Source: Candidatus Aenigmatarchaeota archaeon (GTDB taxonomy: Archaea; Aenigmatarchaeota; Aenigmatarchaeia; CG10238-14; SpSt-28). From it: a stretch of DNA of 64,000 nucleotides. Position numbers and translations under genes: made by a program. The notes under the pieces were generated by a model. The model saw only the letters and a program-made list of their open reading frames with translations, was not told the origin of the DNA and ran no database searches. The stretch lies in assembly GCA_039000985.1 (NCBI GenBank), contig JAWBMD010000001.1, forward strand, positions 32,001-96,000, written 5' to 3'. This document shows positions 1,522 through 57,730 of the stretch, in pieces (position 1 is the stretch's first letter; every line of letters begins with the position of its first letter).

Positions 1522-3015
1522 GTGATTATAGAAAAATATAATGTAGTTTCTCAAAACATTTCAAATGAAGTAACTATTGAAAAAACAAATGATTTTGTAT
1601 TGCATTATAATTTAAAAACTCAAGAAATTGGAAAAGGAACTATTGGTTTATTAAATAAAGTTAAGACAAATTTGCTTGCCGAGATACCATTAAAGCATGG
1701 CGAAATCACAGATTTTCAAAAATGGGAGGAAATAAAAAATAATGTATACCAAAAAGCTATTAATGAAATAAAAAAAGAGCTTCCAACAATAGATGAAAAA
1801 ACATGCAAATTTTTAGCCGGGACTTTAATTCAAGAAATGTTTGGTTTAGGTAAGCTAGAATTTTTAATAGAAGACCCAAATTTAGAAGAAATAGCTATAA
1901 ATGGTTCTAAACAACCAGTTTGGGTTTATCATAAAAAATATGGATGGTTAAAAACTAATATATTTGTACCAAGCGAAATGGATATACAAAATTATGCTAA
2001 CACAATAGCTAGAAGAATTGGTAGACAAATAACTTTGTTAGATCCTTTGCTAGATGCACATTTACCAACTGGTGATAGAGTAAATTCAACTTTATTTCCA
2101 ATATCATCTTTTGGAAATACTTTAACTATAAGAAAGTTTAGAAGGTCTCCATGGACTATTACAGAATTAATAAAAAATAATACTTTTAATTCGGAAATAG
2201 CTAGTTTTATTTGGTTATCAATTCAATATGAATTAAACATGATAGTTGCTGGTGGTACCGGTAGCGGAAAAACAACATTGTTAAATGTTTTTGCAAATTT
2301 TATACCTCCAAATCATAGAATAGTTTCTATTGAAGACACAAGGGAGCTAAATCTTTCAGAATTTTTACATTGGGTACCTTTAACAACAAGAGAACCAAAT
2401 CCAGAAGGTCTTGGTGGTGTGGAAATGCTTGATTTAGTTATAAATAGCTTGAGAATGAGACCGGATAGAATAATAGTTGGAGAAATAAGAAGGGCTAGGG
2501 AGGCTGAAGTTTTATTTGAAGCTATGCATACTGGTCATTCTGTTTATGCTACATTGCACGCAGATACGGCAGATCAAGCAGTAAAAAGATTAATAAATCC
2601 ACCAATAAATGTTCCGGAATCTGTTCTAGATGCTTTACATTTAATTGCTGTTGCTTTCAGAGATAGAAGAACTGGTAAAAGGAGATTGTTTCAAGTAGCT
2701 GAAATAATAGCTGGAGAAAAAGGAGTTAGGATTAATGTTTTTTATAAATGGAAGCCAGCTAAGGATATAATAGAAAAAGAGGGAGAGATTTATAGAATAT
2801 TTGAGGAAATAAGGTCATTTACTGGAATGAGCGATGAAGAAATAAAGGATGATCTGGAAGAGAAAGAAAAAATAATTAAATATTTTGTAAAAAATGATAT
2901 AACGGATTTGAATAAAATTGGGAAAATAATTTCCATTTATTACATAGATAAAAATTTCGTTCTAAAAAATTTAGACAAAAAAATTGATGAGATAATAAAG
3001 AAATGGGAAAGTTGA
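1522..3015 (+). CDS. Type IV pilus/secretion ATPase (TadA/FlaI/VirB11 family)
   Basis: Walker A GGTGSGKTT, SIEDTREL, LRMRPDRIIVGEIR, His box TGHSVYATLHA. Confidence 0.93.
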   Translation: MIIEKYNVVSQNISNEVTIEKTNDFVLHYNLKTQEIGKGTIGLLNKVKTNLLAEIPLKHGEITDFQKWEEIKNNVYQKAINEIKKELPTIDEKTCKFLAGTLIQEMFGLGKLEFLIEDPNLEEIAINGSKQPVWVYHKKYGWLKTNIFVPSEMDIQNYANTIARRIGRQITLLDPLLDAHLPTGDRVNSTLFPISSFGNTLTIRKFRRSPWTITELIKNNTFNSEIASFIWLSIQYELNMIVAGGTGSGKTTLLNVFANFIPPNHRIVSIEDTRELNLSEFLHWVPLTTREPNPEGLGGVEMLDLVINSLRMRPDRIIVGEIRRAREAEVLFEAMHTGHSVYATLHADTADQAVKRLINPPINVPESVLDALHLIAVAFRDRRTGKRRLFQVAEIIAGEKGVRINVFYKWKPAKDIIEKEGEIYRIFEEIRSFTGMSDEEIKDDLEEKEKIIKYFVKNDITDLNKIGKIISIYYIDKNFVLKNLDKKIDEIIKKWES

Positions 3016-3872
3016 GAATACCACTTTTACCTTTTCCTTTAGAAAAAGCAGTAAAGTTTTCAAAGGGTATTATGTTTTTAAGCAATTATTTAATTAAATT
3101 CTTTCCAGGATTGCAGCAATCTTTAATTCAGGCTAATATAAATTTGAAGGATAGGGAATATTTATCTGTAGCTATATTTTCAAGTATTTTTTGGTTTTTG
3201 ATTTTTTTTACAATTTTTATTTCTCTTTCAAAATCTCTACTTAATTCATTTTTGGTATCATTTGCTTTACAAATAATTATTTTAATTTATATAGCATCAT
3301 TTCCAAAATATCTTGTTTCAAAAAGAAATAGAGATATAGAAAGAAATTTGCTTTTTGCTGTTAAGCATTTGCTTATTCAAATAAAAAGTGGAGTTTCTTT
3401 GTTCGACGCAATAGTTTCTGTTTCTAAAGGAAATTACGGAGAAGTATCAAAAGAATTTGAAAGATGTGCAAAAGAAATTTATTCTGGTAGAGAACAAATA
3501 TCAGCTTTAGAAGATATAACAATTAGAAATCCAAATATTTCTTTTAGAAGAGTAATTTGGCAATTAATAAATGCTATGAGAACGGGTACAGATTTAGGTA
3601 GTTCATTAGAAGTTATGGTTAATAATTTATCAAATGAGCAAAGAATAGCAATAAGAAAATATGGTTCCGAGCTAGGACCAATTGCTTTAATGTATTTAAT
3701 GACATCTATTATATTTCCAACTTTGGGAATTGTTTTCATGATAATTTTTTCTTCGTTTAGCGGGATAGCAGTTCCAGAAACCCTTTTTTATATTGTGATA
3801 TTTATGGTTTTAGTTTTTCAATTTACATTTCTAGGAATGATAAAAAGCAAAAGACCTTCTGTTGAAGTATGA
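3003..3872 (+). CDS. Pilus platform membrane protein (TadC/T2SF family)
   Basis: Multiple TM segments and a YGEVSKEF motif; directly follows the ATPase. Confidence 0.85.
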   Translation: MGKLRIPLLPFPLEKAVKFSKGIMFLSNYLIKFFPGLQQSLIQANINLKDREYLSVAIFSSIFWFLIFFTIFISLSKSLLNSFLVSFALQIIILIYIASFPKYLVSKRNRDIERNLLFAVKHLLIQIKSGVSLFDAIVSVSKGNYGEVSKEFERCAKEIYSGREQISALEDITIRNPNISFRRVIWQLINAMRTGTDLGSSLEVMVNNLSNEQRIAIRKYGSELGPIALMYLMTSIIFPTLGIVFMIIFSSFSGIAVPETLFYIVIFMVLVFQFTFLGMIKSKRPSVEV

Positions 3873-4867
3873 ATTACAAAAAAATTTTTAGAAAAATAAG
3901 GGGGTTTTTCCCAGGTTTTTTAATAAAAAAGTTTGAAGAATATCATTCTTTAGCTTCAATAGAAACAGAATTTGAAAAATTTTTTGTCTATTCATTTAAT
4001 TTTTCTTTAGCATTTTCGTTTTTCATTTTTGTTTTGTCAATAATATTTTTCAAAAGCTTGTTTTCGATAATTTTGATTCCAATAGGATTTTTACTTTCAA
4101 TGGTTTTAATATTAGTTAATTTAAATTTAATAGCTGATAAAAAAGCTAGATTTTCAGAAGAAGTGTTGCCAGATTTATTATTGTTAATGGCAAGCAATAT
4201 AAGAGCTGGTTTAACTCCAGATAAATCATTAGCTCTTTCAGCAAGGCCAGAATTTGGTATATTGGAAAGAGAAATAAAAAGTGTTGCAACAAAATCATTA
4301 GCTGGAAAACCTTTTGAGGAAGCTTTATTAGAATTAACTAAAAAAATAAAGTCTAGATTAATAGAAAGAACCATTAATTTGATTATTGAGGGAGTGAAAA
4401 AAGGTGGTGAAATAGCAAAGCTTTTAGAGCAAACAGCTAATGATATAAGGGATTTAAAAACTATGAAAAGAGAAATTTCATCACAAGTTGGTATGTATGT
4501 TATTTTTATTTTTATTGCTTCCGGAATAATTTCTCCAGCACTTTTTTCATTTTCCACCTATTTGTTAGAGACATTGCAAAAAATATCAAAAGAAGTAAGA
4601 ATAGAGGGACCAACAACAGCTTCATTGCCCCAATTCAAGTTTTTAAGATTTGGTGGAGGAATTAGTATTTCTGTAGATTTTATTAGAATTTATGCTTTAT
4701 CAATAAATTTGCTAATTTCATTTTTTGGTAGTTTGATAATTGGATTAATAAGTGAAGGTAGAGAAAAAGCTGGAGTAAAATTCATCCCATCATTATTAAC
4801 TTTAAATATTGCAGTATTTTTTGGAGCAAGTTATGCTGTTAATATAATTTCTAAGCTGTTTGTGTGA
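3869..4867 (+). CDS. Second pilus platform membrane protein (TadC/T2SF family)
   Basis: LPDLLLLMASNIRAGL...RPEFGIL and GGEIAKLLE motifs; TM segments. Confidence 0.87.
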   Translation: MNYKKIFRKIRGFFPGFLIKKFEEYHSLASIETEFEKFFVYSFNFSLAFSFFIFVLSIIFFKSLFSIILIPIGFLLSMVLILVNLNLIADKKARFSEEVLPDLLLLMASNIRAGLTPDKSLALSARPEFGILEREIKSVATKSLAGKPFEEALLELTKKIKSRLIERTINLIIEGVKKGGEIAKLLEQTANDIRDLKTMKREISSQVGMYVIFIFIASGIISPALFSFSTYLLETLQKISKEVRIEGPTTASLPQFKFLRFGGGISISVDFIRIYALSINLLISFFGSLIIGLISEGREKAGVKFIPSLLTLNIAVFFGASYAVNIISKLFV

Positions 4868-6968: not shown

Positions 6969-7316
6969 ATGGAGAAATTTAAACAAGTTATTATTGTAAG
7001 AAAAGATTTAAAAACGAGTAAAGGAAAACTAGCAGTTCAATGCTGTCATGCTTGTATAGGTGCTTTAAAGCAAGTGGAAGAAAAAGTTATCGAGGAATGG
7101 GAAAAAGAAGGAGCAAAAAAAGTTATTTTAAAAGTTAAGGATTTAAATGAATTAGAAAAAATAGAAAAAGAGCTAAAGAAAAACAAAATAAATTATTTTT
7201 TGGTTATAGATGCCGGTAAAACTCAGCTAAAGAAAGGAACAATAACTTGCATAGGTATTGGTCCAATAGAAAGTAAAAAAATAGATAAAATAACAGGAAA
7301 ACTAAAGCTACTTTGA
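6969..7316 (+). CDS. pth2: Peptidyl-tRNA hydrolase Pth2
   Basis: KQVIIVRKDL, GKLAVQCCHA, DAGKTQ, GIGP, ITGKLKLL. Confidence 0.95.
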   Translation: MEKFKQVIIVRKDLKTSKGKLAVQCCHACIGALKQVEEKVIEEWEKEGAKKVILKVKDLNELEKIEKELKKNKINYFLVIDAGKTQLKKGTITCIGIGPIESKKIDKITGKLKLL

Positions 7317-9263
7317 ATTTATATCAATTCTTGTTGATATTGTGATATCAGCTTTACACGCTATTGGTTTTGGAATATCTGTGCCAGTTGGAGATATTTG
7401 AATACATTTATTATATTTGTATTTTTCACATTCCTTTGTAATAATATTAGTCTTTATACATGGACAGTTTTCGTCTATTGTTTTTTCATCTACGTTAACT
7501 ATTTCACCACTTGGAAGTTTACATGTTATTTTGCTTATGAAATTTTCATCTTTATCTTCTATACTTATATTAAGAAAAATATTTTCTCTTGTTATTATTT
7601 CTTTTCTCAAATAAACACTACAACCATCTTTGCATTTTTCTTCATAATAGTTTGCTATAAATGGAAAATTTTCTTTGTAGGAAATTACATTTTCACATTT
7701 ATTATTGCTAAAGCAATCTTCATTGTTGTTTATACAAGTTTGTTCTTTTTTGCTACAAATAGAAAAGTACCAATTTTCTGGTATTACTGCACAATCATAA
7801 TGAATCGTATCTACATATATACTATCTCCATCATTCTCTAAAACTACATCATATATTGCATTAACTAAAAATGTTAATGTTTTTTGTTCTTTTTCTCCTA
7901 CATCAACATTAGAAATATCTAAAACACAATCTATAAAATAGTCTTTACCCCTTTCTAAATATATTTTTCGAGGTAATTCTCCACCTCCAGAAAGATCGAA
8001 AGGTTTGCAATTAAATATTCTCAATTTTTCGCTTCCTATTCCAAGTGTTCTTAAAGATACTTTTGATATGTAAATATCTCCCCTACCTTTATTAGCAAAA
8101 CCTATTGTTAGTGGAACTATTTCATCTATTCCTTTTATTAAAGTTTTCTCTATTGCCTTTACACCAATTGCAAGAGGACCTGGAGTGCTAGTTGATTCAA
8201 ATGCAGTTGGTCTTTGTTTAAAATCTTTTCCTATTATATTTACAGAGACAAATCCAGTTGTGTTATAGGAATATCTAAATTTATATTTCCACTTAAGAGG
8301 GCTTTTACATGTAGAGTCAAATCTAAATATATATTCTTTTGGTAGTTGGTCTATTTCTAAATTTTCAAGCTTACATTCATACAATCTACCCTCTTCCTCT
8401 TCTTTATATTCACATTTTGTTCCAAATGCTGTTGTAAATAGAAAATCATTTGAGTGTGCTGATAAATAAACATTTTTTGCTGGAGGGACTATATCACAAA
8501 TTTTTTGACCAGCTACTTTTATACAATATTCTCTATCACCACCAGCTTTTATATTTATTGATATAGAACCAATAGAATAGGGAATTATATTTTGTCTCTG
8601 AACTTTAGTTTCTAATAAAAAACAATCTACACAGCCCAGTTTTATCGTTTCTACTTTTCTACAAACTACTTCTCTACAATATTTTCCTATACCGCCAGCA
8701 CTATACCAAACATCAGGACTTATAAAATTTGTTATTATGCAGGAAGCCATGCAAAAATTATCACTTATTTTTCCAATACCGGGTATTCTCATTTTTAATA
8801 TGTCTGTTATGTTCTGAAAAAGGAGAAAAGCAGCAATAATGATTAGAATTATAAATATAAAAGAAAATATAGGACGTGAACTAGGAAATTTATTATACAA
8901 AAACATAAAGGCTATAATAATTCCAATTAAAGCAATTATTATAAGGACCAGTGTCCAAATATTAAAAAACAAACCTCTTAGGAATGCGATAATGGAAATT
9001 AATATGATTAAAACTATTGGCAAAGCTAATATTTTGGAAGATGTTAATGCTGGTTGTTTTGATAAAAACTTTTCTTTAAATTCTGAAAATTCCTTAGGTT
9101 TTTCTTCAGCCATGCTTTTAGCCTTATTGAAATGATCTTCACATAAGAATCCAAAAGGAGTAGGTTTACCGGGTTTTTTACAAGCAGGCCAAACACATTT
9201 TACACTAATCTTTTCTTCAATTTTCTTTCCCCACTCTTTAAGCTTTTTACCTATTTTTACCAT
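7308..9263 (-). CDS. Hypothetical membrane-anchored protein with a large Cys-rich extracellular region
   Basis: 651-aa ORF with three hydrophobic segments near the N-terminus, then a beta-rich, Cys-rich region. Confidence 0.7.
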   Translation of the reverse strand: MVKIGKKLKEWGKKIEEKISVKCVWPACKKPGKPTPFGFLCEDHFNKAKSMAEEKPKEFSEFKEKFLSKQPALTSSKILALPIVLIILISIIAFLRGLFFNIWTLVLIIIALIGIIIAFMFLYNKFPSSRPIFSFIFIILIIIAAFLLFQNITDILKMRIPGIGKISDNFCMASCIITNFISPDVWYSAGGIGKYCREVVCRKVETIKLGCVDCFLLETKVQRQNIIPYSIGSISINIKAGGDREYCIKVAGQKICDIVPPAKNVYLSAHSNDFLFTTAFGTKCEYKEEEEGRLYECKLENLEIDQLPKEYIFRFDSTCKSPLKWKYKFRYSYNTTGFVSVNIIGKDFKQRPTAFESTSTPGPLAIGVKAIEKTLIKGIDEIVPLTIGFANKGRGDIYISKVSLRTLGIGSEKLRIFNCKPFDLSGGGELPRKIYLERGKDYFIDCVLDISNVDVGEKEQKTLTFLVNAIYDVVLENDGDSIYVDTIHYDCAVIPENWYFSICSKKEQTCINNNEDCFSNNKCENVISYKENFPFIANYYEEKCKDGCSVYLRKEIITRENIFLNISIEDKDENFISKITCKLPSGEIVNVDEKTIDENCPCIKTNIITKECEKYKYNKCIQISPTGTDIPKPIACKADITISTRIDINSK

Positions 9264-14125: not shown

Positions 14126-14794
14126 ATGCCTATATTTGGTAAAAAAGAAGTAAAGAAGGGGAAGGGTATTATACCAACGGATAGAGTTAAGGACCTATCC
14201 TCTAAAGGATTTTCTGAGCCAGAAATAATAGATATTTTAAGAAGGGAGGGATATAGCCCAGAAGAAATAGATAAAGCTTTGGGAGAGGCAATAAAGTCAG
14301 CTATAGAAAAAGAAGAAAAGAGAGAAGAAGTAAAGGAACCATTGTCTCAACTCACTCCATTACCAACTTCTCCAGTTCCTCCAGCACCAGCTCCGTTAAA
14401 GGAACTCGAGTCTCTTTTTGGAGCAAAGGGAGAGGTTACTGCATTAGAGGTTCCTGAAACGTCTCTTCCTTCTCCAGCAAGAGCTTTAACAGAAGAATAT
14501 ATTGAATATATTATTGATCAAAAGCTAATAGAGGTTTATCAAAGGTTTGAAGATATTTATTATAGAATTGAGGAAATAGAAAAAGCAATGAAAGAAATGA
14601 ATGAAAGTATATCAGAAATAGCTAGAAAGAAAGTATTAGAAAGTGAAGAATTAACTAGAAGATTTGAAAACTTTTCAGAAAGTATGCAAACTATAACTGG
14701 AAGAGTAGGTAGCTTAGAAAAAGCATTTAAAGAAACTTTACCATCATTAGTTGAAGCTATAAGAAATTTGAACGAATCACTGAGAAAGAAATAA
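14126..14794 (+). CDS. Hypothetical protein: helical N-domain, Pro-rich linker, coiled coil
   Basis: KGFSEPEII..LRREGYSPEEIDKAL N-domain, PLPTSPVPPAPAP linker, heptad-rich C-terminal half. Confidence 0.7.
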   Translation: MPIFGKKEVKKGKGIIPTDRVKDLSSKGFSEPEIIDILRREGYSPEEIDKALGEAIKSAIEKEEKREEVKEPLSQLTPLPTSPVPPAPAPLKELESLFGAKGEVTALEVPETSLPSPARALTEEYIEYIIDQKLIEVYQRFEDIYYRIEEIEKAMKEMNESISEIARKKVLESEELTRRFENFSESMQTITGRVGSLEKAFKETLPSLVEAIRNLNESLRKK

Positions 14795-16056: not shown

Positions 16057-16407
16057 ATGAAAGGAGTTAGTGAAGTAGTAGCTATGGTTATGATGTTAGT
16101 AATAACTTTAGCATTAGCAGGAACTGCCTATGTTTTTATAAGTCGTACATTTACAGTACAAACACAAGGTATACAATTAGACGAGGCGTCTTGTTTTGAT
16201 GGTAGTGTTACTCTGATATACCGAAATATTGGAGATCAAACATTAACAGTCAATGTCTTCAAGGGCAACACACCGATTGATACAAGGTTGGTATTTCCAG
16301 GTAGAACAAACATAACAACAGACAGTTGTGGTACAGGAAATATATGTAGATATAGGATAGTACCGAGTGTAGGTAAAACAGTTACAACAACGGTTCAATG
16401 CATATAG
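16057..16407 (+). CDS. Archaeal type IV pilin
   Basis: Class III signal peptide MKG/VSEVVAMVMMLVITLALAG. Confidence 0.88.
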   Translation: MKGVSEVVAMVMMLVITLALAGTAYVFISRTFTVQTQGIQLDEASCFDGSVTLIYRNIGDQTLTVNVFKGNTPIDTRLVFPGRTNITTDSCGTGNICRYRIVPSVGKTVTTTVQCI

Positions 16408-17955: not shown

Positions 17956-19359
17956 ATGGGAAGTCAGGAATTTTTTATAATTATCGGAGTTATAGTTGTT
18001 AGCTTATTATTTTTTTCAATAATTTATTTCAATATAGGAGAAAGAGCTAGAGAAAGTATAAAAAATCAAGTTAAAGCAGAAGCAAGTGAGTTAACTTCTT
18101 TAGTTTACAGAGTTTTTAACGATCCAGCAAAATATTTAAAATATTGTGTACCTGTAAATTTAGCGAATATAACAATAGAAAAAGGAATATTTAAATATGA
18201 GAGACAAGGATTTAGTTTTATCAATGCATTACCACCAAATATTTCCGATGCAACTCTTTCAGATATTACTGATTTTTGTATTGTTAAAACCGATAGCATG
18301 ATAAAAATTTTAGGTACTGCTCCTACTTGTGAAATAGATAGAATTTGTTCAATTGATGAATGTAAAGAAAACTGTATTGATTGTTATGGTCCAGCAAATA
18401 TTTGTATTGGAGATAAGTATTGTAATAAAGAGATTGGTGAAAATTGTGGAAAATCACCAAATGATTGTAGTTGTAATAATTTCGGTTCTGATTACACATG
18501 TTGTCCAGAGGATCCCTCTTCAAACGAATATGGTTGTATTGATAAAACCAGACAAAATAAGAAAAGAGGTGAGGAATGTTTTTGTAGCAATCAATGTGAA
18601 GCAGGTTTAGAATGCAATCCCGTCGCACCTTCTTTTACAAAATACAAAAAAGCTTGTTGTGATCCAGGAAAGGGTTGGAATGGAACTGATTGCACATCTA
18701 TTGAGAAAAAATTGAAAGTACTATTTGTGCCTGTAAATTGGGATAGTGATTTCTCATCATTTGATAGCGTTGCAAAAAATCATTTCGATTTTTTAATAAA
18801 AAATATTCCGTTATCAGCTTGTCCAGAAAAGGCAGAAGCAAAATTTTTACATAATAACTGCAAATTTACTATGACGTGTGATTGTTCCGATCTTTTGAAA
18901 ATCCAACAATGTGCAAGAGCTTCGGGAGAAACTTATGATTATATAATGGGTTTAGAAGATAGTAATGTATGCGATAGTGTGGCTGGATTTTCTTGTGGAT
19001 TTGGTGTTGTTTTTGGAGAATCTCCTTATGTTTTAGTAACTACACACGAATTAGGTCATGAATGGGGGTTAAATGATGAATATATAGATGCATGTAGATG
19101 TGGATTCGGTCTTGTTAATCCAAATGCTAATTGTCTGAGGTCTCGGCTTCATGGAGATGATGCTGTTCCACCCTATACTCGAGATTATTGTAGTGAAAAG
19201 GGAACAAAATGTCCATCAGGATATTCTATAACATGTATGGGAAATCAAAACAAATTGGGTGGAAGAGATATTATGAGTTTTGCTAATGCGCCAGGTCCTC
19301 GTGCTTTTGCAGAAGAAAGCTGGAATTATTTATTAACGGTTCCAATTATAAATTGTTAA
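17956..19359 (+). CDS. Membrane-anchored Cys-rich protein with a C-terminal zincin-type metallopeptidase domain
   Basis: N-terminal TM, Cys-rich middle, HELGHEWGLNDEY zinc motif and a downstream DIMS Met-turn-like segment. Confidence 0.72.
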   Translation: MGSQEFFIIIGVIVVSLLFFSIIYFNIGERARESIKNQVKAEASELTSLVYRVFNDPAKYLKYCVPVNLANITIEKGIFKYERQGFSFINALPPNISDATLSDITDFCIVKTDSMIKILGTAPTCEIDRICSIDECKENCIDCYGPANICIGDKYCNKEIGENCGKSPNDCSCNNFGSDYTCCPEDPSSNEYGCIDKTRQNKKRGEECFCSNQCEAGLECNPVAPSFTKYKKACCDPGKGWNGTDCTSIEKKLKVLFVPVNWDSDFSSFDSVAKNHFDFLIKNIPLSACPEKAEAKFLHNNCKFTMTCDCSDLLKIQQCARASGETYDYIMGLEDSNVCDSVAGFSCGFGVVFGESPYVLVTTHELGHEWGLNDEYIDACRCGFGLVNPNANCLRSRLHGDDAVPPYTRDYCSEKGTKCPSGYSITCMGNQNKLGGRDIMSFANAPGPRAFAEESWNYLLTVPIINC

Positions 19360-19360
19360 A

Positions 19361-20263
19361 ATGGTTAGCAAAAAAATTCTACACTCATTTTTGATTATTT
19401 TCTCATTTTTAATTATTGTACAATTAACTTATGCTGAAACAATTTTATCTTTACAGTTTAATGTATCTAAAGACGATACTGTAATTCTAGAAGAGATAAA
19501 GGTAATGGAGGGAAGATCTACACAATATTTTGTTCCAGGTGATTATAAAATTCAGCTATTAGATAGTGGTAAAGAGGTTATATTTGAAAAATCTATTAAT
19601 ATAGTATTTTTTATACTTTCGGAACCACCAATACCAGTAGATAGTATGATAGTTAGCTTAAGAGTAACTTATAATCCAGATATGAGATATGTTAGGTTAC
19701 TTCATAATGAAAAAGAAATATTTTTCAGTGAAATAATTGTATGTAACAATAATAAAGTATGTGAAGCTTCGGAGAGTTATTTAAGTTGTCCTTCTGATTG
19801 TCCTTTGAATTTACCAGATGGTATATGTATTAAGGATAAAGATGGAATTTGTGATCCAGACTGTGCTCCAAATGTGGACCCAGATTGTATAGAGAAAGTT
19901 TCTATTTGCGGTAACAAGGTTTGTGAAAGTAATGAAACATATCAAAATTGTTGTATAGATTGTGGTTGTCCAAAAGGACTAATCTGTAAAAACAATTTTT
20001 GTATAGAGGATAGATGTGGTAATAAAATTTGTGAAAGTTTTTCTCCATATAACGAAAATTATGTGAATTGTCCGAAGGATTGCCCTTCCGGAAGTAAAGA
20101 TAATTATTGTGATGCCATAGCAGATGGAAAATGTGACCCAGATTGTGAAAAAAATAAAGATATAGATTGTATTAAACCATCAACAACATGGATTTATTTT
20201 TTGATTATTGGTGTAATTGTTGTTTTGGTAATATTTATATTTTTGTTAACAAAAAGGGAATAA
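19361..20263 (+). CDS. Secreted, C-terminally anchored Cys-repeat surface protein
   Basis: Signal peptide; three C(G/N)NxxCE...C units and two DGxCDPDC...DxDC units; C-terminal TM with a basic tail. Confidence 0.75.
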   Translation: MVSKKILHSFLIIFSFLIIVQLTYAETILSLQFNVSKDDTVILEEIKVMEGRSTQYFVPGDYKIQLLDSGKEVIFEKSINIVFFILSEPPIPVDSMIVSLRVTYNPDMRYVRLLHNEKEIFFSEIIVCNNNKVCEASESYLSCPSDCPLNLPDGICIKDKDGICDPDCAPNVDPDCIEKVSICGNKVCESNETYQNCCIDCGCPKGLICKNNFCIEDRCGNKICESFSPYNENYVNCPKDCPSGSKDNYCDAIADGKCDPDCEKNKDIDCIKPSTTWIYFLIIGVIVVLVIFIFLLTKRE

Positions 20264-20998: not shown

Positions 20999-21486
20999 AA
21001 AAAATATTAGCAATTTCTGATTCACATGTAAATAATTTATCTCAGCTTCCTGTTGAGCTAGTTCAAATTTTTAAAGATTTTGATTTTATTGTTCATTGTG
21101 GAGATTTTACTGGCATAAAAATTGTTCAAGAATTAAAAGAGTTTAAAAATTTTTTTGGTGTTGTTGGAAATGTAGATGATTTTGAAATATCTAAAATTTT
21201 AGATAAAAAAGTTGTTTTTGATATAAATGGCTTTAAAATAGGAATTATACATCCTTATGAAGGTGGACCACCAATAAATATTAAAACAAGGATTTTAAAA
21301 AGTTTTGGTAATGAAAAACTTGATTTAATTATATTTGGACATACTCATTTTGCAGAAATATCAGAATTCAATTCAGTTAAATTTGTTAATCCCGGTAGTT
21401 GTACAGGAAAATTACCAGCTTTGTTTAAAAGTTATGCTATAATAGAAATAGATAATGAAATTAAAGCTAGAATTGTAAGGTATTGA
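20995..21486 (+). CDS. YfcE/Vps29-like metallophosphoesterase
   Basis: SDSH, HCGD, GNVD, GHTH, NPGS. Confidence 0.9.
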   Translation: MKKILAISDSHVNNLSQLPVELVQIFKDFDFIVHCGDFTGIKIVQELKEFKNFFGVVGNVDDFEISKILDKKVVFDINGFKIGIIHPYEGGPPINIKTRILKSFGNEKLDLIIFGHTHFAEISEFNSVKFVNPGSCTGKLPALFKSYAIIEIDNEIKARIVRY

Positions 21487-24088
21487 AAATAACTTTTTTT
21501 GATAAAGTGTTGTTATAAGAGAAATATAAATCTCCATCACAATAAACACATCTGCAAGATAATGGTATTGTTTGATATTCTTTCTCACATTTTTTACAAA
21601 CTATTTTATCAAAGCTTTCTAAAAATTCCTTAACTTCTTTTTTATTATTAATTATTTTTGCTATTTCAAGTTTTGTTTGTTTACCAATTTCTTTTATATC
21701 ACTAACATTTGCTCCTATTGCTTCCATTATTCTTTCTATTGGTGGAAATAGTTGGCTTTTTATGTAATAATCATAATCTATTTCCAATCCTTCTCTTTTA
21801 ACAAAATTAGGATCTTCAGCTCTTTTTGATAAAATTTCACCACCTTTTACTATAACAAAGCTTATTCTATCACCAACTCCAGGTATTCTTTTTTCTCCCC
21901 TCTCTTTCATTTTTTTAATTAGTTCTATATGTGGCTGAATTCCTTTATAATTTGTTTTAGAAATACCTTTTGTTATTAATAGTTTTTCTAAAGGTATTTT
22001 ACCTTCTCTAAGATTTTTAACAATTTCTTTAAATCTGTTAACAGCTTTTTCAACATTCTTTTCTTTTAATATAGTGCTAACAACTTCTTCTAAAGTATCT
22101 GTAACTAAATCACACCAATCTCTTCTAACTGTTTCTATTCCTTTCATAACAATTTTTTCATTACCATTTTCATCAACAGAAAGAGCAGCATATCTTTTTT
22201 TAGTTAAAATTATAATGCTTTTGAAAATACTCTCTATTTTCATTTTCAAATTCTCATATTTTATATTTACAATATTCTCCAATTCTTTAGCTTTTTCAAA
22301 AGCTAACTTTATATCATCTGTATCAAGTTTAACCATTATAGAATCTGTATCTCCATAAATAACTTTATAATTTGTTTCTTTCTCGATAGTTTCCTTCATT
22401 TCTGTTATTAATTTTCTACCGTTCGCTGTTATTGAGTTAGCTATTTCCAATATATACAATCTACCAGAAACAAAACCCGTATAACCATAAAATGCATTTG
22501 CTATTCTTTTAAAAGCCTCTTGCATAGCATCCAGTTTTTCTCTCATAATTTCGTCTTTTTCATTTTTTAGCGAGCTCTTTATTTTATTTCTTTCTTCAAT
22601 CATCCTTTTTAAAATTTTTGGATATATACCCTCTCTAACATTTTTAGAAACAAATTTTGGAATTCCATTTTCTATAATAAGTGTTGTTGGACAAATGTTA
22701 AAACTTATTATTATGTTTGGGTACATGCTTGCAAAATCTAAGTAAACTATGCATTTATCATGAAAACCTATTTGTGGTTGCAACACTAATCCACCTTCCA
22801 ATCCCTTAGCTTCTTTTTCCTTTTCTCTTTCCAATTTAATTTTTTCTGATGGTTTGTTTGGCATTACAAAATCACGTTTATTAAATTCTTTAAGCAAAAG
22901 GAATTCTATTTTTGAGGCTTCTCCACCATCAAGTATATCTTGTAACAATAAACCACTAACTTTGCTTAGAGCAATATATTTATCAAGCATTTTATATTTC
23001 AAAAACAGTTTAAAGGCAAGTTCTGAATCTTTTCTAGCATATTCTATTACTTTTTTTGGATTTTCATACCAGTATTTTTCTATTTCGCTATGAGATATAT
23101 CTATTTTGCTTTCATTTAACAAAAAGTTTGCCACACTGTTTAAGTCAAATCTTTTCAATTTTTTGAAAAAACCAACTTTTACTAATTCTTTTATAATTTT
23201 ATAGCTATCTACAATAAATCTACCAACTATATGATTTTTATATTTGTTTTCTCTTAGTTTTTTTGATGAAGCTGATTTTTCTTCTGCTCTTCCCATTATC
23301 GGCTTTATATTTAGTTTTTTCATTCTGTTTATTAGATATGGTAAATCGAAATCATTTATGTTATACCCAACTATAAAATCTGGATCAAAATCTTTAACTA
23401 TTTCTAAAAACTTCTTTAGCATTTCTTTTTCATCTTCAAAACAAATTACATCAACTTCACTATTTTTAATAATTTTTGAAGTCAAAATTAGACTATTTTT
23501 TTCGTTGTAGTGTGGATAAAAGAAAAGGGAAATAATTATTATTTCCCCTTCTGCAGTTTCTACATTTGGACTACCTATACATTCTATATCTATTGTCAAG
23601 AATTTAAAATTAGCATTTTTTTCTTCATTCAAGTTCTCAAAGCTTTCCGCTTCATATGCTTCATTTACATATAAAGAGTTCGAATTTATTCTTTTACCTT
23701 TAATTTTTATCCAATTCATTCCATTAATGTTGAAATCTGCTGCAAATCTATATTTAAACAATATATCAGCTTCAAATGTTTCCACCTTTATTTTATTTCT
23801 AATATTCGGTACATCTGCCGGATTTGATAAATAAACTTTCATAAGCTTTGTTTTATTTTCATTAAATCCTATTGGTAAAAATTTTTCTACAATTTCAGAT
23901 TTTATAAAATGAGGTTCCTTTAAAATTTCTTCGTTTAAAGAATTTATGTAAAAATATGGATAAAATTTTTTGTATATTACACAAACTGTTTTACCATCTT
24001 CTTTTTTTCCAAATATTCTTATTATTGGTACTTTTTCGCTTTTAGAATAAACATAATCTATGTCAAATACTTGAAAGGATACTTCCAC
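21467..24088 (-). CDS. polB: B-family DNA polymerase, eukaryote (alpha/delta)-like, with a C-terminal Zn finger
   Basis: Exonuclease motifs DIE, GYNINDFD, YARKD; polymerase motifs DFASMYP, KRIANAFYG, YGDTDS, KKRYA, KGIETVRRDW; C-terminal CKKC-x12-CVYC. Confidence 0.95.
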   Translation of the reverse strand: MEVSFQVFDIDYVYSKSEKVPIIRIFGKKEDGKTVCVIYKKFYPYFYINSLNEEILKEPHFIKSEIVEKFLPIGFNENKTKLMKVYLSNPADVPNIRNKIKVETFEADILFKYRFAADFNINGMNWIKIKGKRINSNSLYVNEAYEAESFENLNEEKNANFKFLTIDIECIGSPNVETAEGEIIIISLFFYPHYNEKNSLILTSKIIKNSEVDVICFEDEKEMLKKFLEIVKDFDPDFIVGYNINDFDLPYLINRMKKLNIKPIMGRAEEKSASSKKLRENKYKNHIVGRFIVDSYKIIKELVKVGFFKKLKRFDLNSVANFLLNESKIDISHSEIEKYWYENPKKVIEYARKDSELAFKLFLKYKMLDKYIALSKVSGLLLQDILDGGEASKIEFLLLKEFNKRDFVMPNKPSEKIKLEREKEKEAKGLEGGLVLQPQIGFHDKCIVYLDFASMYPNIIISFNICPTTLIIENGIPKFVSKNVREGIYPKILKRMIEERNKIKSSLKNEKDEIMREKLDAMQEAFKRIANAFYGYTGFVSGRLYILEIANSITANGRKLITEMKETIEKETNYKVIYGDTDSIMVKLDTDDIKLAFEKAKELENIVNIKYENLKMKIESIFKSIIILTKKRYAALSVDENGNEKIVMKGIETVRRDWCDLVTDTLEEVVSTILKEKNVEKAVNRFKEIVKNLREGKIPLEKLLITKGISKTNYKGIQPHIELIKKMKERGEKRIPGVGDRISFVIVKGGEILSKRAEDPNFVKREGLEIDYDYYIKSQLFPPIERIMEAIGANVSDIKEIGKQTKLEIAKIINNKKEVKEFLESFDKIVCKKCEKEYQTIPLSCRCVYCDGDLYFSYNNTLSKKVIFNTLQF

Positions 24089-24102: not shown

Positions 24103-25062
24103 TTAGAAATTTTTATATATTTCTCTACTTTTTAAGTTTATATCAACAAATGTATTTTCTTTTATATATAATATTGTTGTACCCTTGTAGTTCAGGCAAA
24201 TATTGTCAAATTTATTACCATAAACAACTATAAAATCTGGAATTTCTTTAAGCAAAAGAGCATTTGATGGTAGTTTTTTTATTAATGGGTTTAAATTTCT
24301 TTTTTTAACTAAACTTATTATCTCTTTTTCGAAATCATTTTCTATCTTTGTTAAATTTTCATTAACTATTAAAACTAAAAAATCATTTTCTATTTTTGCC
24401 TTTAGCATATTGTTAAAAACTATTGTGTTTTTCCAAATTTTTTTATTATTAAAAAAGTAATAATTGTTGCTTTTTGGTGTTTCATTACATTCATAACCAA
24501 ATCTAACAAAAACATCTCTACTAGCTTTTTTAGATTTGGCTAAAGGTATATCCGGATAAACTACTTTTTTTATTTTATAATCCTTTACAATAAAGCCAAA
24601 AACATCAGATTCAAATATTTTTTCATCAATATCTAATTGTAATTTTATTTTATCTGTATAATCTTCAACTAATATATTATCATTATTAACTTCAATTACA
24701 ATACCTATTATATTACCGCTTTTGTTCTTTTTTAAATTTGATATCGACATTACATTTACCATTTCTATCTTGCTTTTGATTAAGTTTCTTAAAAATTCAA
24801 ATCTATCAACAATTATTTTATTAATGCTTTCTATACTAATTTCATTTATACTAATATCACTTTCTATAATTTCAAATTCATTTTTTTCAAAGATTTTATT
24901 TAATAAATCTAAAGTTATGCATTTATCAGGTATTTTTTCAAATTCAATATTTTTAAACAAATCTTCTAAGCTTTCAATTCCCTTTAAATATTCTAATGCT
25001 TCGGGAGTTACAGTAAAACCTCTCAGCAAAAATTCCTTTATAATTTCATTTGTTGATAACAT
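24103..25062 (-). CDS. Inactivated PolD DP1 / eukaryotic B-subunit-like protein
   Basis: N-terminal helical motif FLLRGFTVTPEALEYL; DRFEFLR..I; OB-like IIGIV...VEDYTD...YPDIP; LVKKRNLNP...LLKEIPD. Phosphoesterase metal ligands are absent. Confidence 0.75.
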   Translation of the reverse strand: MLSTNEIIKEFLLRGFTVTPEALEYLKGIESLEDLFKNIEFEKIPDKCITLDLLNKIFEKNEFEIIESDISINEISIESINKIIVDRFEFLRNLIKSKIEMVNVMSISNLKKNKSGNIIGIVIEVNNDNILVEDYTDKIKLQLDIDEKIFESDVFGFIVKDYKIKKVVYPDIPLAKSKKASRDVFVRFGYECNETPKSNNYYFFNNKKIWKNTIVFNNMLKAKIENDFLVLIVNENLTKIENDFEKEIISLVKKRNLNPLIKKLPSNALLLKEIPDFIVVYGNKFDNICLNYKGTTILYIKENTFVDINLKSREIYKNF

Positions 25063-25276
25063 AAAGTCTTGTTTTTTTTGTTTTACTTGAATTTATTTCA
25101 AATACTTTAACTTTTCCAATAGATATTAATTCATTAATATATTTTTTCGCTGTTCCCCAATTCAAGTTACAAATTTTTGATATTTTAAGCAAAGTTAATG
25201 GATATTTTGAACTAGATAAAACTTCTAAAATTTTCTTTTGAGTTTCAAATCTTTTAGAAGGCCTTCCAACTTTCAT
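25046..25276 (-). CDS. Small winged-helix DNA-binding protein
   Basis: ILEVL...PLTLLKISKICNLNWGTAKKYINEL...GKV followed by a beta wing. Confidence 0.72.
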   Translation of the reverse strand: MKVGRPSKRFETQKKILEVLSSSKYPLTLLKISKICNLNWGTAKKYINELISIGKVKVFEINSSKTKKTRLYVINK

Positions 25277-34156: not shown

Positions 34157-37054
34157 ATGGCAGAAATTAGAAAACCTAATTTTATAAGAATAAGTGATGT
34201 AGTTTGGGAAATACCAACTACTTATAAAAGTGGAATGAGAGTTCCTGTTAGAATTTATGCAAAAGAAAGTCTTTTAAATTCAATGGATCTGGAAGTTTTT
34301 GATCAAGCAAGTAATGCAGCAATGCTTCCAGGTTTAATAAAATATTCATATGTTTTTAGTGATGGTCATTCTGGTTATGGTGTACCAGTTGGTTGGTGTG
34401 GCGCTTTTGATTTAAAGGAAGGAATAATTTCTCCAGGAGCTATAGGTTTTGACATTAATTGCGTTGCTGGAAACACTAAAATCATTTCGGAATTTGGATA
34501 TTTCAAAAATATTTCTGATTTTGAAAGAAAGTTAGATGAAAAATTAGTATGTATGGATATAAATAAAAAGATTGAAGATAAAGCTGAGCCAATTCTTTTT
34601 TTAAAGCAAAAACCAAAAGAAAAAGTTATAAAAATAAAGACAAAGGCTGGTTATGAGTTAATAGCTACTGTTGATCATCCAATTTTTACTCCTAATAATA
34701 TGATAAAGGCAGGTGAACTAAAAGAAGGAGATTATGTTGCTATTTATCCTTTTGAAGGTGTTAAATACGAAGAGCCATCAGATGAAATTATTTTGGATGA
34801 AGAAAGTATAATTAAAGCAATTGGTATGAGAAAAAGAATTATTAAAGAATTAAAAGATAGAAAGCTCTTACCATTACGATATAATTCACCCCAATTACCA
34901 ATTTTAGCGAGATTAGTCGGGTTTATTACAGGAGACGGATGGATAGGAGAGGTAAATGGAAGATGGTCCACAAGGATAATTGGAAATGTTGAAACATTAG
35001 AAAAAATAGCTGAAGATATAAAGAGATTAGGATTTTCTTTAAAAAGTAAAATAGTTACTAAAAAAGGAATAAGAGAAATAAAAGGTACAACTACCCAACT
35101 TCCAATAGCTTCACAAAGTTTTACAGTTCTTCTTTATATGCTTGGTGTCCCGAAAGGTAACAAATCCTTTACAGAATTTGAAGTTCCTGAGTGGATTAAG
35201 AAAGCTCCTTTATGGATTAAAAGATTGTATCTAGCTGGACTTTTTGGAGCAGAAATGAGTAAGCCCAAATCAAGAAATAAAGAAAAATATGGATTTGTTG
35301 AACCATCATTTAGTCTAAATAAATCTGAAAAATTATTGCAGAATGCTTACAAATTTATTAATCAAATAAAAGAAATGCTTTCTGAATTTGGTGTTAATTG
35401 TAATAAAATTTACATTTATGATGCAGCAATTACAAAATCTGGAGAGAAAACATTAAAAATCATTTTGAAAATTTCTTCTAAAGATGAAAATTTGATAAAG
35501 TTGTGGTCAAAAATAGGATGCGAATATGATATAGATAAAAAATCTATGATGGCAACAGCTTTACATTACTTAAGATTAAAAAGGAGATTTATAAAAAGTT
35601 TAATTTCTAAGTATAAAGAAATAATAATTTCCGGTGGAACAAAAGAAGATGATATAAAAGCATTAGGAAATGCTTTAATTTGTATAAAAGAAGCAAGAGT
35701 ATCTATAGGCTTTCCAACATTTGAAACATTTCTTGAAAATTATGTCATAAATTCAACTTTTGTTTGGGACGAAATTGAAAAAATTACAGAAATTAATGAT
35801 TTTTCTGACTATGTATATGATTTTACAATGAACTCAGAAAATCATAATTTTATAGCTAATAATTTTGTTGTTTCTAATTGCGGCATGCGTTTGATAAAGA
35901 CCAATTTAACTCTAGAAGAAATAAAACCAAAAATTAAAGAATTAGTTGATTTGCTTTTTAAAATGGTTCCAGCTGGAGTTGGAGCAACAGCTTATCAAGA
36001 ACCTAAAGAAATAGCTAAGATACCAGAAGGAACATTTAGAGAAATAGTTGAAACTGGAGTTAGATGGACATTGGAGCATGGATATGCTTGGAAAGAAGAT
36101 ATAGAAAGAATAGAAGAATATGGTTGTGTTAAAACAGCAGATTTTTCTAAAGTTAGTAGAACAGCTTATGAAAGAGGAAAAAGCCAAATAGGTACTTTAG
36201 GTTCTGGTAATCATTATCTTGAAATCGAAGTTATAGATAGAGTTTTTAATAAGGAAATAGCAAATGCATGGGGTTTAAATATTGTTCCAAATCAAATTTG
36301 CATATTAGTGCATTGTGGTTCTAGGGGATTTGGTCATCAAATTTGTACTGATTATCTTTTAAGCTTTGAAAGAGCAATGAGAAAATATGGTATAAAAGTT
36401 CCAGATAGACAATTAGCCTGTGCTCCTTTTGATTCTGAAGAAGGACAAAATTATTTAAAAGCAATGTCTTGTGCTATAAATTTTGCTTTTGTTAATAGAC
36501 AATTAATAGTTTACCAAATAAGAAAAGCATTTGAAAAAGTTTTTAATAAAAGTGCTGAAGAATTAGGATTGGAAATAATTTATGATGTTGCACACAATAC
36601 TGCTAAAATAGAGGAGCATTCAGTTAATGGAGAAAAGAAAAAAGTTATTGTTCATAGAAAAGGAGCAACTAGATCTTTTGGACCAGATAATCCAGAATTA
36701 TCTTCATTATTTAGAAAATACGGCCAACCAGTTATTGTTGGTGGTAGCATGGAAACTGGTTCCTTTTTATGTATAGGTACTAAAAAAGCTGAAGAGGAAA
36801 CTTTTGGTACAACTTTACATGGTAGTGGAAGAACAATGAGCAGAACAAAAGCTAAAAAAATGGTTAGGGGTGAAGAGTTGCAAAGAAAAATGATTGAAAG
36901 AGGAATTTATATTAAAGCTACAACAATGTCTGGATTAGCGGAGGAAGCAGGATTTGCTTATAAAAATATAGATGAGGTGGTTGATTCAATGCATTTAGCT
37001 GGAATAAGTTTAAAGGTGGTTAGATTTAAACCAATAGCAAACATTAAAGGTTAG
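34157..37054 (+). CDS. rtcB: tRNA-splicing ligase RtcB, intein-containing
   Basis: DGHSGYG.PVG, GFDIN|CGMR, GTLGSGNHYLE, HCGSRGFGH, HRKGATR, HGSGR, EEA..AYK. Confidence 0.96.
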   Translation: MAEIRKPNFIRISDVVWEIPTTYKSGMRVPVRIYAKESLLNSMDLEVFDQASNAAMLPGLIKYSYVFSDGHSGYGVPVGWCGAFDLKEGIISPGAIGFDINCVAGNTKIISEFGYFKNISDFERKLDEKLVCMDINKKIEDKAEPILFLKQKPKEKVIKIKTKAGYELIATVDHPIFTPNNMIKAGELKEGDYVAIYPFEGVKYEEPSDEIILDEESIIKAIGMRKRIIKELKDRKLLPLRYNSPQLPILARLVGFITGDGWIGEVNGRWSTRIIGNVETLEKIAEDIKRLGFSLKSKIVTKKGIREIKGTTTQLPIASQSFTVLLYMLGVPKGNKSFTEFEVPEWIKKAPLWIKRLYLAGLFGAEMSKPKSRNKEKYGFVEPSFSLNKSEKLLQNAYKFINQIKEMLSEFGVNCNKIYIYDAAITKSGEKTLKIILKISSKDENLIKLWSKIGCEYDIDKKSMMATALHYLRLKRRFIKSLISKYKEIIISGGTKEDDIKALGNALICIKEARVSIGFPTFETFLENYVINSTFVWDEIEKITEINDFSDYVYDFTMNSENHNFIANNFVVSNCGMRLIKTNLTLEEIKPKIKELVDLLFKMVPAGVGATAYQEPKEIAKIPEGTFREIVETGVRWTLEHGYAWKEDIERIEEYGCVKTADFSKVSRTAYERGKSQIGTLGSGNHYLEIEVIDRVFNKEIANAWGLNIVPNQICILVHCGSRGFGHQICTDYLLSFERAMRKYGIKVPDRQLACAPFDSEEGQNYLKAMSCAINFAFVNRQLIVYQIRKAFEKVFNKSAEELGLEIIYDVAHNTAKIEEHSVNGEKKKVIVHRKGATRSFGPDNPELSSLFRKYGQPVIVGGSMETGSFLCIGTKKAEEETFGTTLHGSGRTMSRTKAKKMVRGEELQRKMIERGIYIKATTMSGLAEEAGFAYKNIDEVVDSMHLAGISLKVVRFKPIANIKG
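34460..35878 (+). mobile_element. Intein (473 aa) with a LAGLIDADG homing endonuclease, in RtcB
   Basis: Starts CVAGNT after GFDIN; block B TVDH; LVGFITGDG and YLAGLFGAE motifs; VYDFT...HNFIANNFVVSN followed by the +1 Cys. Confidence 0.93.
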
Positions 37055-41818: not shown

Positions 41819-42392
41819 AATATAATTTATCTAAAAAGTAATTTAGTATAACTATGCATTGAGAAGTGAAATATTCAATGTTTCCAAGCGAAATAAAGCC
41901 TTTGGCATGCTTTTTTAAAAATTTCTTTTTATCTTTTGGAATTCCTTCATGATCACCAAGCACAAACATAATATTTTTATTTTTAAACTCAAAACTTTCT
42001 AAATTATCACCTTTTTTATCAAGCACATAAATATCGAAATTTTCTTTTGAATTAGTTATAACATTTTCCAAGCTATTTTTTTCTATAAATATTCCTGGCA
42101 GTGCTTCCACTTTTTTTCCTTTTTTATATTTCCACAAAACAATTCTTAATAATTCCCCAACATCTTTTTTTGAAAATGGAGTTTTTTCATTTGGGATTAT
42201 TTCTATATGTTTTGGTGGATCTGGAGGTCCATTTAAAATTATATCCATTTTAACATCTTTTCTAATTTTATTTGAAAGGAAAAAAGAATGAATTATTGAA
42301 TGAGCAACTATATCCAATCTACCAGCTTTCATTAAATCTTTAAATTTGCTAGTTGTATATCCTCTATTTGAAAATAGAAGAAAATTTCTCAT
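41733..42392 (-). CDS. trmY: tRNA pseudouridine(54)-N1 methyltransferase TrmY (SPOUT)
   Basis: [29 protein letters not shown]. Confidence 0.88.
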
Positions 42393-43240
42393 ATTTCTGT
42401 TTCTGTAATTTTTAGAAAAGCCATGAAAAGTATGTTTGTTAAAGGAACTCCAATATATATGAGAAGTTTTGAAATTTCAACTATTGTGAATCCACCAATT
42501 TGCTTGCTAATTAAACTCATAATTGAAAGCAAAGAAACTATGAAAAGAGGTGAAGACAAAACTAACCCTATATATATTTCCGCAACCGTGCTCAATCTTT
42601 GAATATATCTTTGTCTTTTTCCCCTCCATTCCACCAATGTCCTTTCAGATATATATTCAAGATATGATTTCAAATCACCCCCAGCTATTGTTGTACTTGC
42701 TATTCCATTTAATAATTCACCCATTCTTTTAGATGGGCTTTTAGAAGCAACATCCCTCAATGCTAAAACAAAATTCATACCAAAACTTTCCATATTAAGA
42801 ACGACTCTTTCAAATTCTTTTCCAACTTCTCCATACTCTTTAAATCTAGAAAGTATTTTGAATGCAAGATATGGTGGTATTCCACTTCTTACTATCGATG
42901 ATAAATGAATTATTACATATGGTAAAATGCTTTCAATTTGAGTATTTCTTGAATATGCTTTATTTATTGGATAAAATATTCCGATTAAAAATGTTGAAGT
43001 GGCTGCAATTATTGGTAAAAATATATTTAAAAATAGCAAAATCAATTGAGATTTAATAAAATATGGTAAAATTGTTGTTGAAACGAAAATAGACGATATA
43101 AATACTATTGCTGTTAAAGAAAGTATTATCGAAATATATGTAACCAAATTAATTTTCATGTTCGCTTTATTCATATAATCTCTTAAAAAGCTTAGAAATG
43201 ATTCAAGTTTTTCTGCAATTGGTAAAAGTAGTTTTCTCAC
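42389..43240 (-). CDS. Pilus platform membrane protein (TadC/FlaJ/T2SF)
   Basis: YGEVGKEF, SPS, GGDLKSYL, AEIY; TM segments. Confidence 0.87.
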   Translation of the reverse strand: MRKLLLPIAEKLESFLSFLRDYMNKANMKINLVTYISIILSLTAIVFISSIFVSTTILPYFIKSQLILLFLNIFLPIIAATSTFLIGIFYPINKAYSRNTQIESILPYVIIHLSSIVRSGIPPYLAFKILSRFKEYGEVGKEFERVVLNMESFGMNFVLALRDVASKSPSKRMGELLNGIASTTIAGGDLKSYLEYISERTLVEWRGKRQRYIQRLSTVAEIYIGLVLSSPLFIVSLLSIMSLISKQIGGFTIVEISKLLIYIGVPLTNILFMAFLKITETEI

Positions 43241-57658: not shown

Positions 57659-57730
57659 TGGACCAGCCGGGATTTGAACCCGGAGCCTTCGCTCAGCCAA
57701 AGCGACGTGCTACCATTGCACCACTGGCCC
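57659..57730 (-). tRNA. tRNA-Ala(GGC), intronless, CCA not encoded
   Basis: Cloverleaf GGGCCAG-TG-GTGC AATGGTA GCAC-G-TCGCT TTGGCTG AGCGA-AGGCT-CCGGG TTCAAAT CCCGG-CTGGTCC-A, with the G3:U70 Ala identity pair. Confidence 0.95.

Follow-up and report, generated by a model that had tools for sequence, protein, structure and literature searches.

The window analyzed here is a 64,000-nucleotide stretch of a Candidatus Aenigmatarchaeota archaeon genome (contig JAWBMD010000001.1, positions 32,001 to 96,000). We analyzed a minus-strand gene in it that encodes a family-B DNA polymerase (PolB) ending in a small Cys finger, together with its upstream neighbor, which encodes a shrunken relative of DP1, the small subunit of PolD. 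The initial annotation of the window had claimed that the finger follows the pattern of the C-terminal finger of DP2, the large subunit of PolD, and had been grafted from there onto PolB. The features that bear on this claim are given below in window coordinates.

The polB locus and its partner gene

21467..24088, minus strand: PolB, a family-B DNA polymerase, probably of group B6 (aenigma1 type), 873 amino acids (aa), GTG start, with the family assigned by Pfam and a motif scan
21659..21685, minus strand: K/R-Q-x-x-L motif in the terminal part of the PolB core, followed by a variable linker; located by a pattern scan and the model
21518..21610, minus strand: C4 finger resembling DP2 Zn-III, approximately residues 827-857, with presumed ligands C831, C834, C847, and C850 and an extra C845
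21470..21517, minus strand: short C-terminal tail after the finger, a predicted beta strand in the AlphaFold model, without the helices of the DP2 type
24103..25062, minus strand: DP1*, 319 aa, a shrunken and inactivated version of DP1 (the small subunit of PolD; B-subunit-like), with 14 bp between its gene and the downstream polB

PolB matched the Pfam models of the family-B polymerase domain (DNA_pol_B, E 2e-115) and the exonuclease (E 1e-37). A motif scan, made on the sequence only, found the exonuclease motifs ExoI (D167-I-E), ExoII, and ExoIII complete, as well as the polymerase motifs A (451), B (527), and C (578, YGDTDS). The core scored 334 bits with Thermococcales PolB, 298 bits with Pol delta, and 266 bits with Pol alpha. 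The same genome encodes a second, finger-less PolB of 799 aa on another contig (G000, contig C8, locus L003, 5554-9786), which scored 516 bits with Thermococcales PolB and 157 bits with Pol delta. Judged by these scores, the core of the finger-bearing PolB appears unusually close to Pol delta compared with the other PolB of the genome, and the shift toward Pol delta and Pol alpha is consistent with a placement in group B6 as sister of the Delta-like clade. Despite this shift, its best match was still Thermococcales PolB. The second polB directly precedes an open reading frame (ORF) that starts with Cys motifs, presumably a reverse gyrase.

Homologue counts in this text cover the 120 listed of the 721 homologues found. 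The K/R-Q-x-x-L motif, which we take to be possibly the PCNA-binding box of PolB, preceded the finger in all 120 when a loose pattern was used, and the segment was of low confidence in the AlphaFold model.

Next, we analyzed the partner gene. DP1* matched the NCBIfam model NF003118 (E 2e-10), and a profile of its family matched DP1 in the PDB (E 1e-30), with weak matches to the B subunits of Pol delta and epsilon. A pattern scan detected none of the five nuclease motifs in DP1*, which is the sole DP1-like match in the genome. Among 30 such genes upstream of polB, none carried all five nuclease motifs, and none carried motif III or IV. The window DP1* is among the shortest, with 319 aa in a range of 314-442. 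Searching the 201 genomes of the phylum revealed a DP1-like gene in 197. The distance between DP1* and polB was counted in the 117 genomes that occur in both best-150 match lists (205 and 114 further matches lay outside), a sample that over-represents close relatives and in which kin are not independent. In 96 of these genomes, DP1* was at most 1 kb upstream of polB and shared its strand; in 18 more, the two genes were arranged otherwise but no more than 10 kb apart, and in the remaining 3 they were on different contigs.

Relation of the finger to DP2

The peptide quoted in the initial annotation is the C-terminus of the 873-aa ORF at 21467-24088 on the minus strand. This tail holds five Cys residues, whose codons (C831 at 21596-98, C834 at 21587-89, C845 at 21554-56, C847 at 21548-50, and C850 at 21539-41) span 21539-21598, as had been annotated. 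The five residues form one motif and not the two-motif arrangement (CysA plus CysB), indicating that only one finger is present, again as claimed. An alignment of 31 tails (the window PolB and 30 relatives) showed C831, C834, C847, and C850 to be invariant; conservation was at least 90% for P, L, and the Gly that follows the finger. All 120 listed homologues contained CxxC-x12-Cx(1-2)C within their last 110 residues; PL was present in 101 and the Arg-Arg pair in 81. The window finger has Gln-Thr in place of the DP2 motif's Arg-Arg pair, a difference on which the initial annotation was silent. The DP2 pattern given in the initial annotation held for the CxxC-x12-CxxC spacing, the aromatic residue, and PL, all of which agree with DP2 Zn-III, but not for Arg-Arg. 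A basic residue was absent from both Arg-Arg positions in 25 of the 120 homologues, which retained P and L. Furthermore, C845 stands where 116 of the 120 have Gly, and Cys at this position was observed in two, the window PolB and its nearest relative. The metal bound by the finger is presumably zinc.

The window PolB has 23 residues after the last Cys, and the median was 18 in these PolBs versus 60-61 in DP2. The AlphaFold model of the tail showed strands only and no helix, with a predicted local distance difference test (pLDDT) value of 77 and low confidence at residues 2-13. What PolB and DP2 have in common is only the finger of approximately 31 residues with a short tail; the helical bundle that flanks it in DP2 is absent.

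When the last 70 aa of PolB were compared with the 18,950 models of NCBIfam (E up to 10), the three models matched all represented PolD DP2 (E 2e-4, 6e-4, and 6e-3; model positions 1010-1044 of 1096). When the 31 tails were scanned singly against NCBIfam, four DP2 models were matched by 30, 30, 29, and 25 of them, and the next family by 8; in Pfam, zf-DPOE was matched weakly in 3 of the 31. A PDB search with the 31-tail profile returned three DP2 sequences first (E 4e-9, 4e-8, and 4e-8), aligned over the third zinc motif only. The next match had E 1e-3, and tails of Pol alpha, delta, and epsilon were absent up to E 10. When the last 97 aa were searched against the PDB as a single sequence, only chance matches resulted (saposins and others, E 0.06 or worse), and this search was discarded. 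HHalign of the tail profile against six DP2 C-termini gave 98.3% (E 1e-14). The HMM-HMM comparison suggested in the initial annotation therefore favored DP2, and the eukaryotic C-terminal domains (CTDs) were covered by the PDB profile search only. The non-Cys positions of the relatives' fingers agreed with DP2 almost residue for residue.

In a Foldseek search, the best match of the AlphaFold tail model was DP2 of P. abyssi PolD (root-mean-square deviation 0.6 Å over 31 columns, E only 0.05), with Nob1 and adenylate kinase close behind. An HMM built from five DP2 fingers ranked the PolB finger first among the 5,662 six-frame ORFs of the genome, although narrowly (13.7 versus 11.3 bits; iE 0.013). 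Scored against shuffles in which four Cys were fixed, the PolB finger reached 19.5 bits with this HMM, a value attained by 0 of 1,000 shuffles (maximum 16.6). On these comparisons taken together, we regard the homology between the finger and DP2 as solid at the family level, and as weak but real for the window copy.

PolD in the phylum and the proposed role of the finger

DP2 was not found in the window genome with PF03833 and TIGR00354, both of which matched their positive controls; the sole TIGR00354 match in the genome was the PolB finger. The nearest named locus, from Ca. Aenigmatarchaeota, showed 79% identity and identical gene order, and the 17 organism-labelled homologues comprised 16 from Aenigm(at)archaeota and 1 from Omnitrophica. 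Across the phylum, DP2 was above the cut-off in 8 of 201 genomes, all of which belong to one family, f11 (G005, G016, G027, G060, G098, G138, G139, and G161; loci L036-L043, L052, and L066-L075). The best f11 matches to the window PolB reached only E 1e-38 to 1e-70, compared with about 1e-200 in most other genomes, and a few genomes outside f11 also had no strong match. None of five f11 PolBs examined carried the finger, and the complete set of five nuclease motifs was present in each of the six f11 DP1s examined; DP1 and DP2 were not adjacent in the f11 loci read. Family f11 keeps a full PolD and has no B6-type PolB. It is about as likely as not that f11 represents, within this class, the condition that preceded the swap of PolB for PolD. 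A DP2-like match on contig C4 of one genome (G062) coincided with an ORF that resembles a release factor and has a Cys ribbon of its own; the match was excluded. A DP2-finger-like HMM match (E 1e-6) was also observed in an 81-aa frame approximately 4 kb from polB in another genome (G020, C1, 222-314; L054).

Kazlauskas et al. 2020 (PMC7544198) described the B6-aenigma1 PolB as carrying one motif that is most similar to the DP2 finger and was acquired from DP2 Zn-III, stated that most Aenigmarchaeota lack DP2 and that their DP1 is inactive, and suggested a mobile-element origin for B6; the Table S4 rows of that study place DP1 next to polB in the B6-aenigma1 reference genome. Feng et al. 2025 (PMC12680538) described the Aenigmatarchaeota tail as a degenerate DP2CTD related to the longer one of Baldrarchaeia, reported binding of the PolB tail to DP1 by two-hybrid analysis in this phylum, and stated that the lineage lacks DP2. 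The pairing of a PolB finger with a dead DP1 is thus already published for this phylum. That family f11 has PolD accords with "most" in the 2020 study more closely than with the 2025 statement. No further paper on the B6-aenigma1 group was among those listed by our literature searches.

A complex of DP1* with the 72-aa PolB tail was then modeled. The predicted complex scored 0.83, compared with 0.00 for the best control. Of 157 solved pairs, 116 reached the score mark used, as did 2 of 215 mismatched ones; with the alignments used here, these numbers are approximate. The model runs agreed in at least 78% of contacts, and the pLDDT of the partner was at least 76, dropping to 51 when DP1* was replaced. 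The most confident contacts involved L843 and the 838-845 loop, as well as the last strand (864-868) against DP1* residues 75-77. For comparison, the Zn-III loop and two arginines of PolD lie in the groove between the OB and PDE domains of DP1, and helices add contacts, as described in PMC6355029.

We propose that the finger is very probably a DP2-derived dock that joins the B6 PolB to the dead DP1*, forming a polymerase in the place of PolD. This proposal is supported by the finger homology, the intact PolB motifs, the dead DP1, the tight gene linkage, and a DP2 that was not found. DP2 was also the best match in each library that contains a DP2 C-terminus, and the published two-hybrid binding, the complex model, and the contrast with family f11 point the same way. 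The earlier claim that the finger was grafted from PolD onto PolB is supported as well, with distribution and literature pointing to the direction from DP2 to PolB. As a docking module taken from DP2 Zn-III, the finger would tie a catalytically intact PolB to a nuclease-dead DP1*, and the resulting two-subunit, Pol alpha/delta-like polymerase would have replaced PolD in this aenigmarchaeon. The Tyr-to-Leu loop (838-843) and the last strand are predicted to pack on DP1* residues 72-88 and 121-138. Because the PolB exonuclease motifs are intact, proofreading may have moved to PolB's own exonuclease. DP1* would then be retained as a scaffold or link to the replisome, and the replicase would be the finger-bearing PolB rather than the finger-less one on contig C8.

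Several observations weigh against this proposal. The window finger has neither of the Arg residues that PolD places in the DP1 groove, and the tail lacks the DP2 helices, which form the remainder of the interface. The window PolB is an eroded member of its family, its finger ranking 113th of the 120 listed homologues against the five-DP2-finger HMM. The high score of the complex may arise because PolD and Pol epsilon complexes of similar structure have been solved. Pfam gave no DP2 match for the finger region, nothing at all for the window PolB tail, and generic ribbons only for the tails of relatives (ADK_lid in 20 of 31). DP2 was not among the matches listed by the VIA wide fold search, which Nob1 headed (best Z 2.9); for a finger of this size, the search is uninformative. 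In addition, the loss of DP2 is not proven because the 843 kb window genome is 89.7% complete, and two genomes outside f11, G091 and G169, carry DP2 fragments on contigs of 3.1 and 1.9 kb besides their own dead DP1. The former fragment (C64, L044) lies beside an active-looking DP1, and the latter is on C78 (L045); both are likely binning contamination.

As a tentative alternative, the finger could have moved in the opposite direction or stemmed from a third source: the B6 PolB could have come with the finger attached, either from a mobile element or from a degenerated two-finger, Baldrarchaeia-like ancestor, instead of capturing it from the host DP2. Such an arrival accords with the mobile-element origin suggested for B6 in PMC7544198 and with the degenerate, Baldrarchaeia-related DP2CTD described in PMC12680538, and since the DP1 and DP2 genes of f11 are not neighbors, gene order does not show a replacement in place. 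However, it would alter only the route and neither the ultimate DP2 origin nor the docking function, and 31 residues are too few to resolve the donor. We consider it improbable that the DP2-derived finger is vestigial or repurposed, no longer binding DP1* stably and instead contacting DNA, PCNA, or primase, or stabilizing the C-terminus. The lost Arg-Arg, the fifth Cys in place of a Gly that hardly varies (2 of 120), the low rank with the DP2 HMM, and the short DP1* could be read in this way, as could the location of PolD Zn-III near the DNA duplex as well (PMC6355029). Nevertheless, the 25 homologues with no basic residue at either position keep P and L, the operon is intact, and the complex model owes its pass to the hydrophobic loop, with the partner pLDDT falling on replacement of DP1*. 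Hardly credible, and already largely refuted, is a generic zinc ribbon of the RpoP, Nob1, or adenylate-kinase lid type that was fused to PolB independently and came to resemble DP2 by convergence: the match is short, the Pfam matches are generic, and Nob1 and adenylate kinase stand high in the fold searches, but the non-Cys positions agree with DP2, DP2 leads by five orders of magnitude in the PDB, the finger co-occurs with dead DP1 and DP2 loss, and this explanation is not upheld because the best library matches (NCBIfam, PDB profile, and HHalign) are DP2.

The docking proposal can be compared with four described systems. With the B6-aenigma1 PolB and inactive Aenigma DP1, as described in PMC7544198 and PMC12680538, the window shares the phylum (by its named relatives) and the single DP2-like finger, as well as the inactive DP1, its position next to polB, and the DP2 that was not found (PMC7544198). 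The window copy differs in details, namely the lost Arg-Arg, the fifth Cys, and the very short DP1*, and a small winged-helix gene, not cdc6, lies upstream. With DP2 Zn-III of PolD (P. abyssi 6HMS, 6T8H, and 9F2A; T. kodakarensis-type 6KNB; PMC6355029), the finger shares CxxC-x12-CxxC and the aromatic-x-x-x-P-L loop, and it is predicted to dock on DP1 likewise. In contrast to DP2, it has no flanking helical bundle, is borne on a family-B core, and has a nuclease-dead partner; the two-barrel catalytic subunit DP2 and an active DP1, which make up PolD, were not found in the window genome. The Baldrarchaeia PolB3-DP2CTD (formerly B6-aenigma2), as presented in PMC12680538, also combines a PolB, a DP2-derived tail that binds DP1, and a lost DP2, whereas its tail is described as longer, with two metal motifs and helices, which sets it apart from the window tail. 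The CTD (CysB) of eukaryotic Pol alpha, delta, and epsilon with its B subunit follows the same logic of an active PolB, a DP2-type finger, and an inactive DP1 homologue (PMC2669801, PMC6355029), and a PolD origin of the eukaryotic fingers was proposed in 2009 (PMC2669801). Unlike these CTDs, the window tail is without a helical bundle and has a single motif where they have two.

If the docking proposal holds, the arrangement would represent an archaeal version of the step behind the eukaryotic replicases, in which a family-B core takes over while the PolD finger and a dead DP1 scaffold are kept; for this phylum, the point has been published before. The window copy adds an extreme, eroded example, with no Arg-Arg, no helices, and a 319-aa DP1*, which could be used to test the minimum size of the interface between polymerase and B subunit. 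Family f11, with its intact PolD, provides a natural comparison.

The winged-helix gene and other genes of the window

One further gene lies at the head of the array.

25046..25276, minus strand: winged-helix protein, 76 aa, with an N-terminal GRP motif; overlaps the DP1* start and is the first gene of the likely operon

The gene falls below the length that the default ORF lists cover. The protein matched HTH_24 (E 5e-6), and no significant sequence match to it was found in the PDB. In the 35 loci read by eye, this gene was upstream of DP1* in 27 and cdc6 was in the other 8. It was present in 56 of the 201 genomes, mostly in families f1 and f3, which amounts to part of one order and 5 other genomes; it is conserved at the operon head in families f1, f3, f5, and f6. 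An origin as a C-terminal remnant of Cdc6 was ruled out by HHalign (0.4%). A second start of the winged-helix-DP1*-polB array was observed on a 2.7 kb contig of a genome that already has one (G013, C21, L055), owing to either strain mixture or duplication.

The fold matches of the winged-helix protein are ordinary regulators, and it has features of a DNA binder, indicating that it is probably a regulator. In eukaryotic Pol delta, the winged-helix N-terminus of the third subunit binds the B subunit. By analogy, the protein might be a third holoenzyme subunit that binds the dead DP1, in which case this DPANN archaeon would possess a Pol delta-like replicase of three subunits. We regard this as very unlikely in view of its limited distribution, DNA-binder features, and regulator-type fold matches, and an autoregulator is far more likely. 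With TIGR02928 and PF09079, cdc6/orc1 was not found in the window genome; it was found in 16 of 18 family relatives, and a genome of the same genus (G206) gave a partial match only. The missing cdc6/orc1 probably reflects an assembly gap.

Elsewhere in the window, large ORFs at 7308-9263, 14126-14794, 57693-59045, and 61468-62766 had no meaningful Pfam match, the last of them giving weak matches of the coiled-coil type only. Two separate sets of a type II/IV secretion ATPase and a T2SSF membrane protein were observed at 1522-4867 on the plus strand and 42389-44889 on the minus strand, and a pilin-like gene at 16057. The plus strand at 17956-20263 encodes two Cys-rich proteins (467 and 300 aa) that contain repeated Cys modules and matched nothing in Pfam; they are probably secreted or located at the surface. 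Finally, an RtcB tRNA ligase with a LAGLIDADG intein is encoded at 34157-37054 on the plus strand and is followed by archease.

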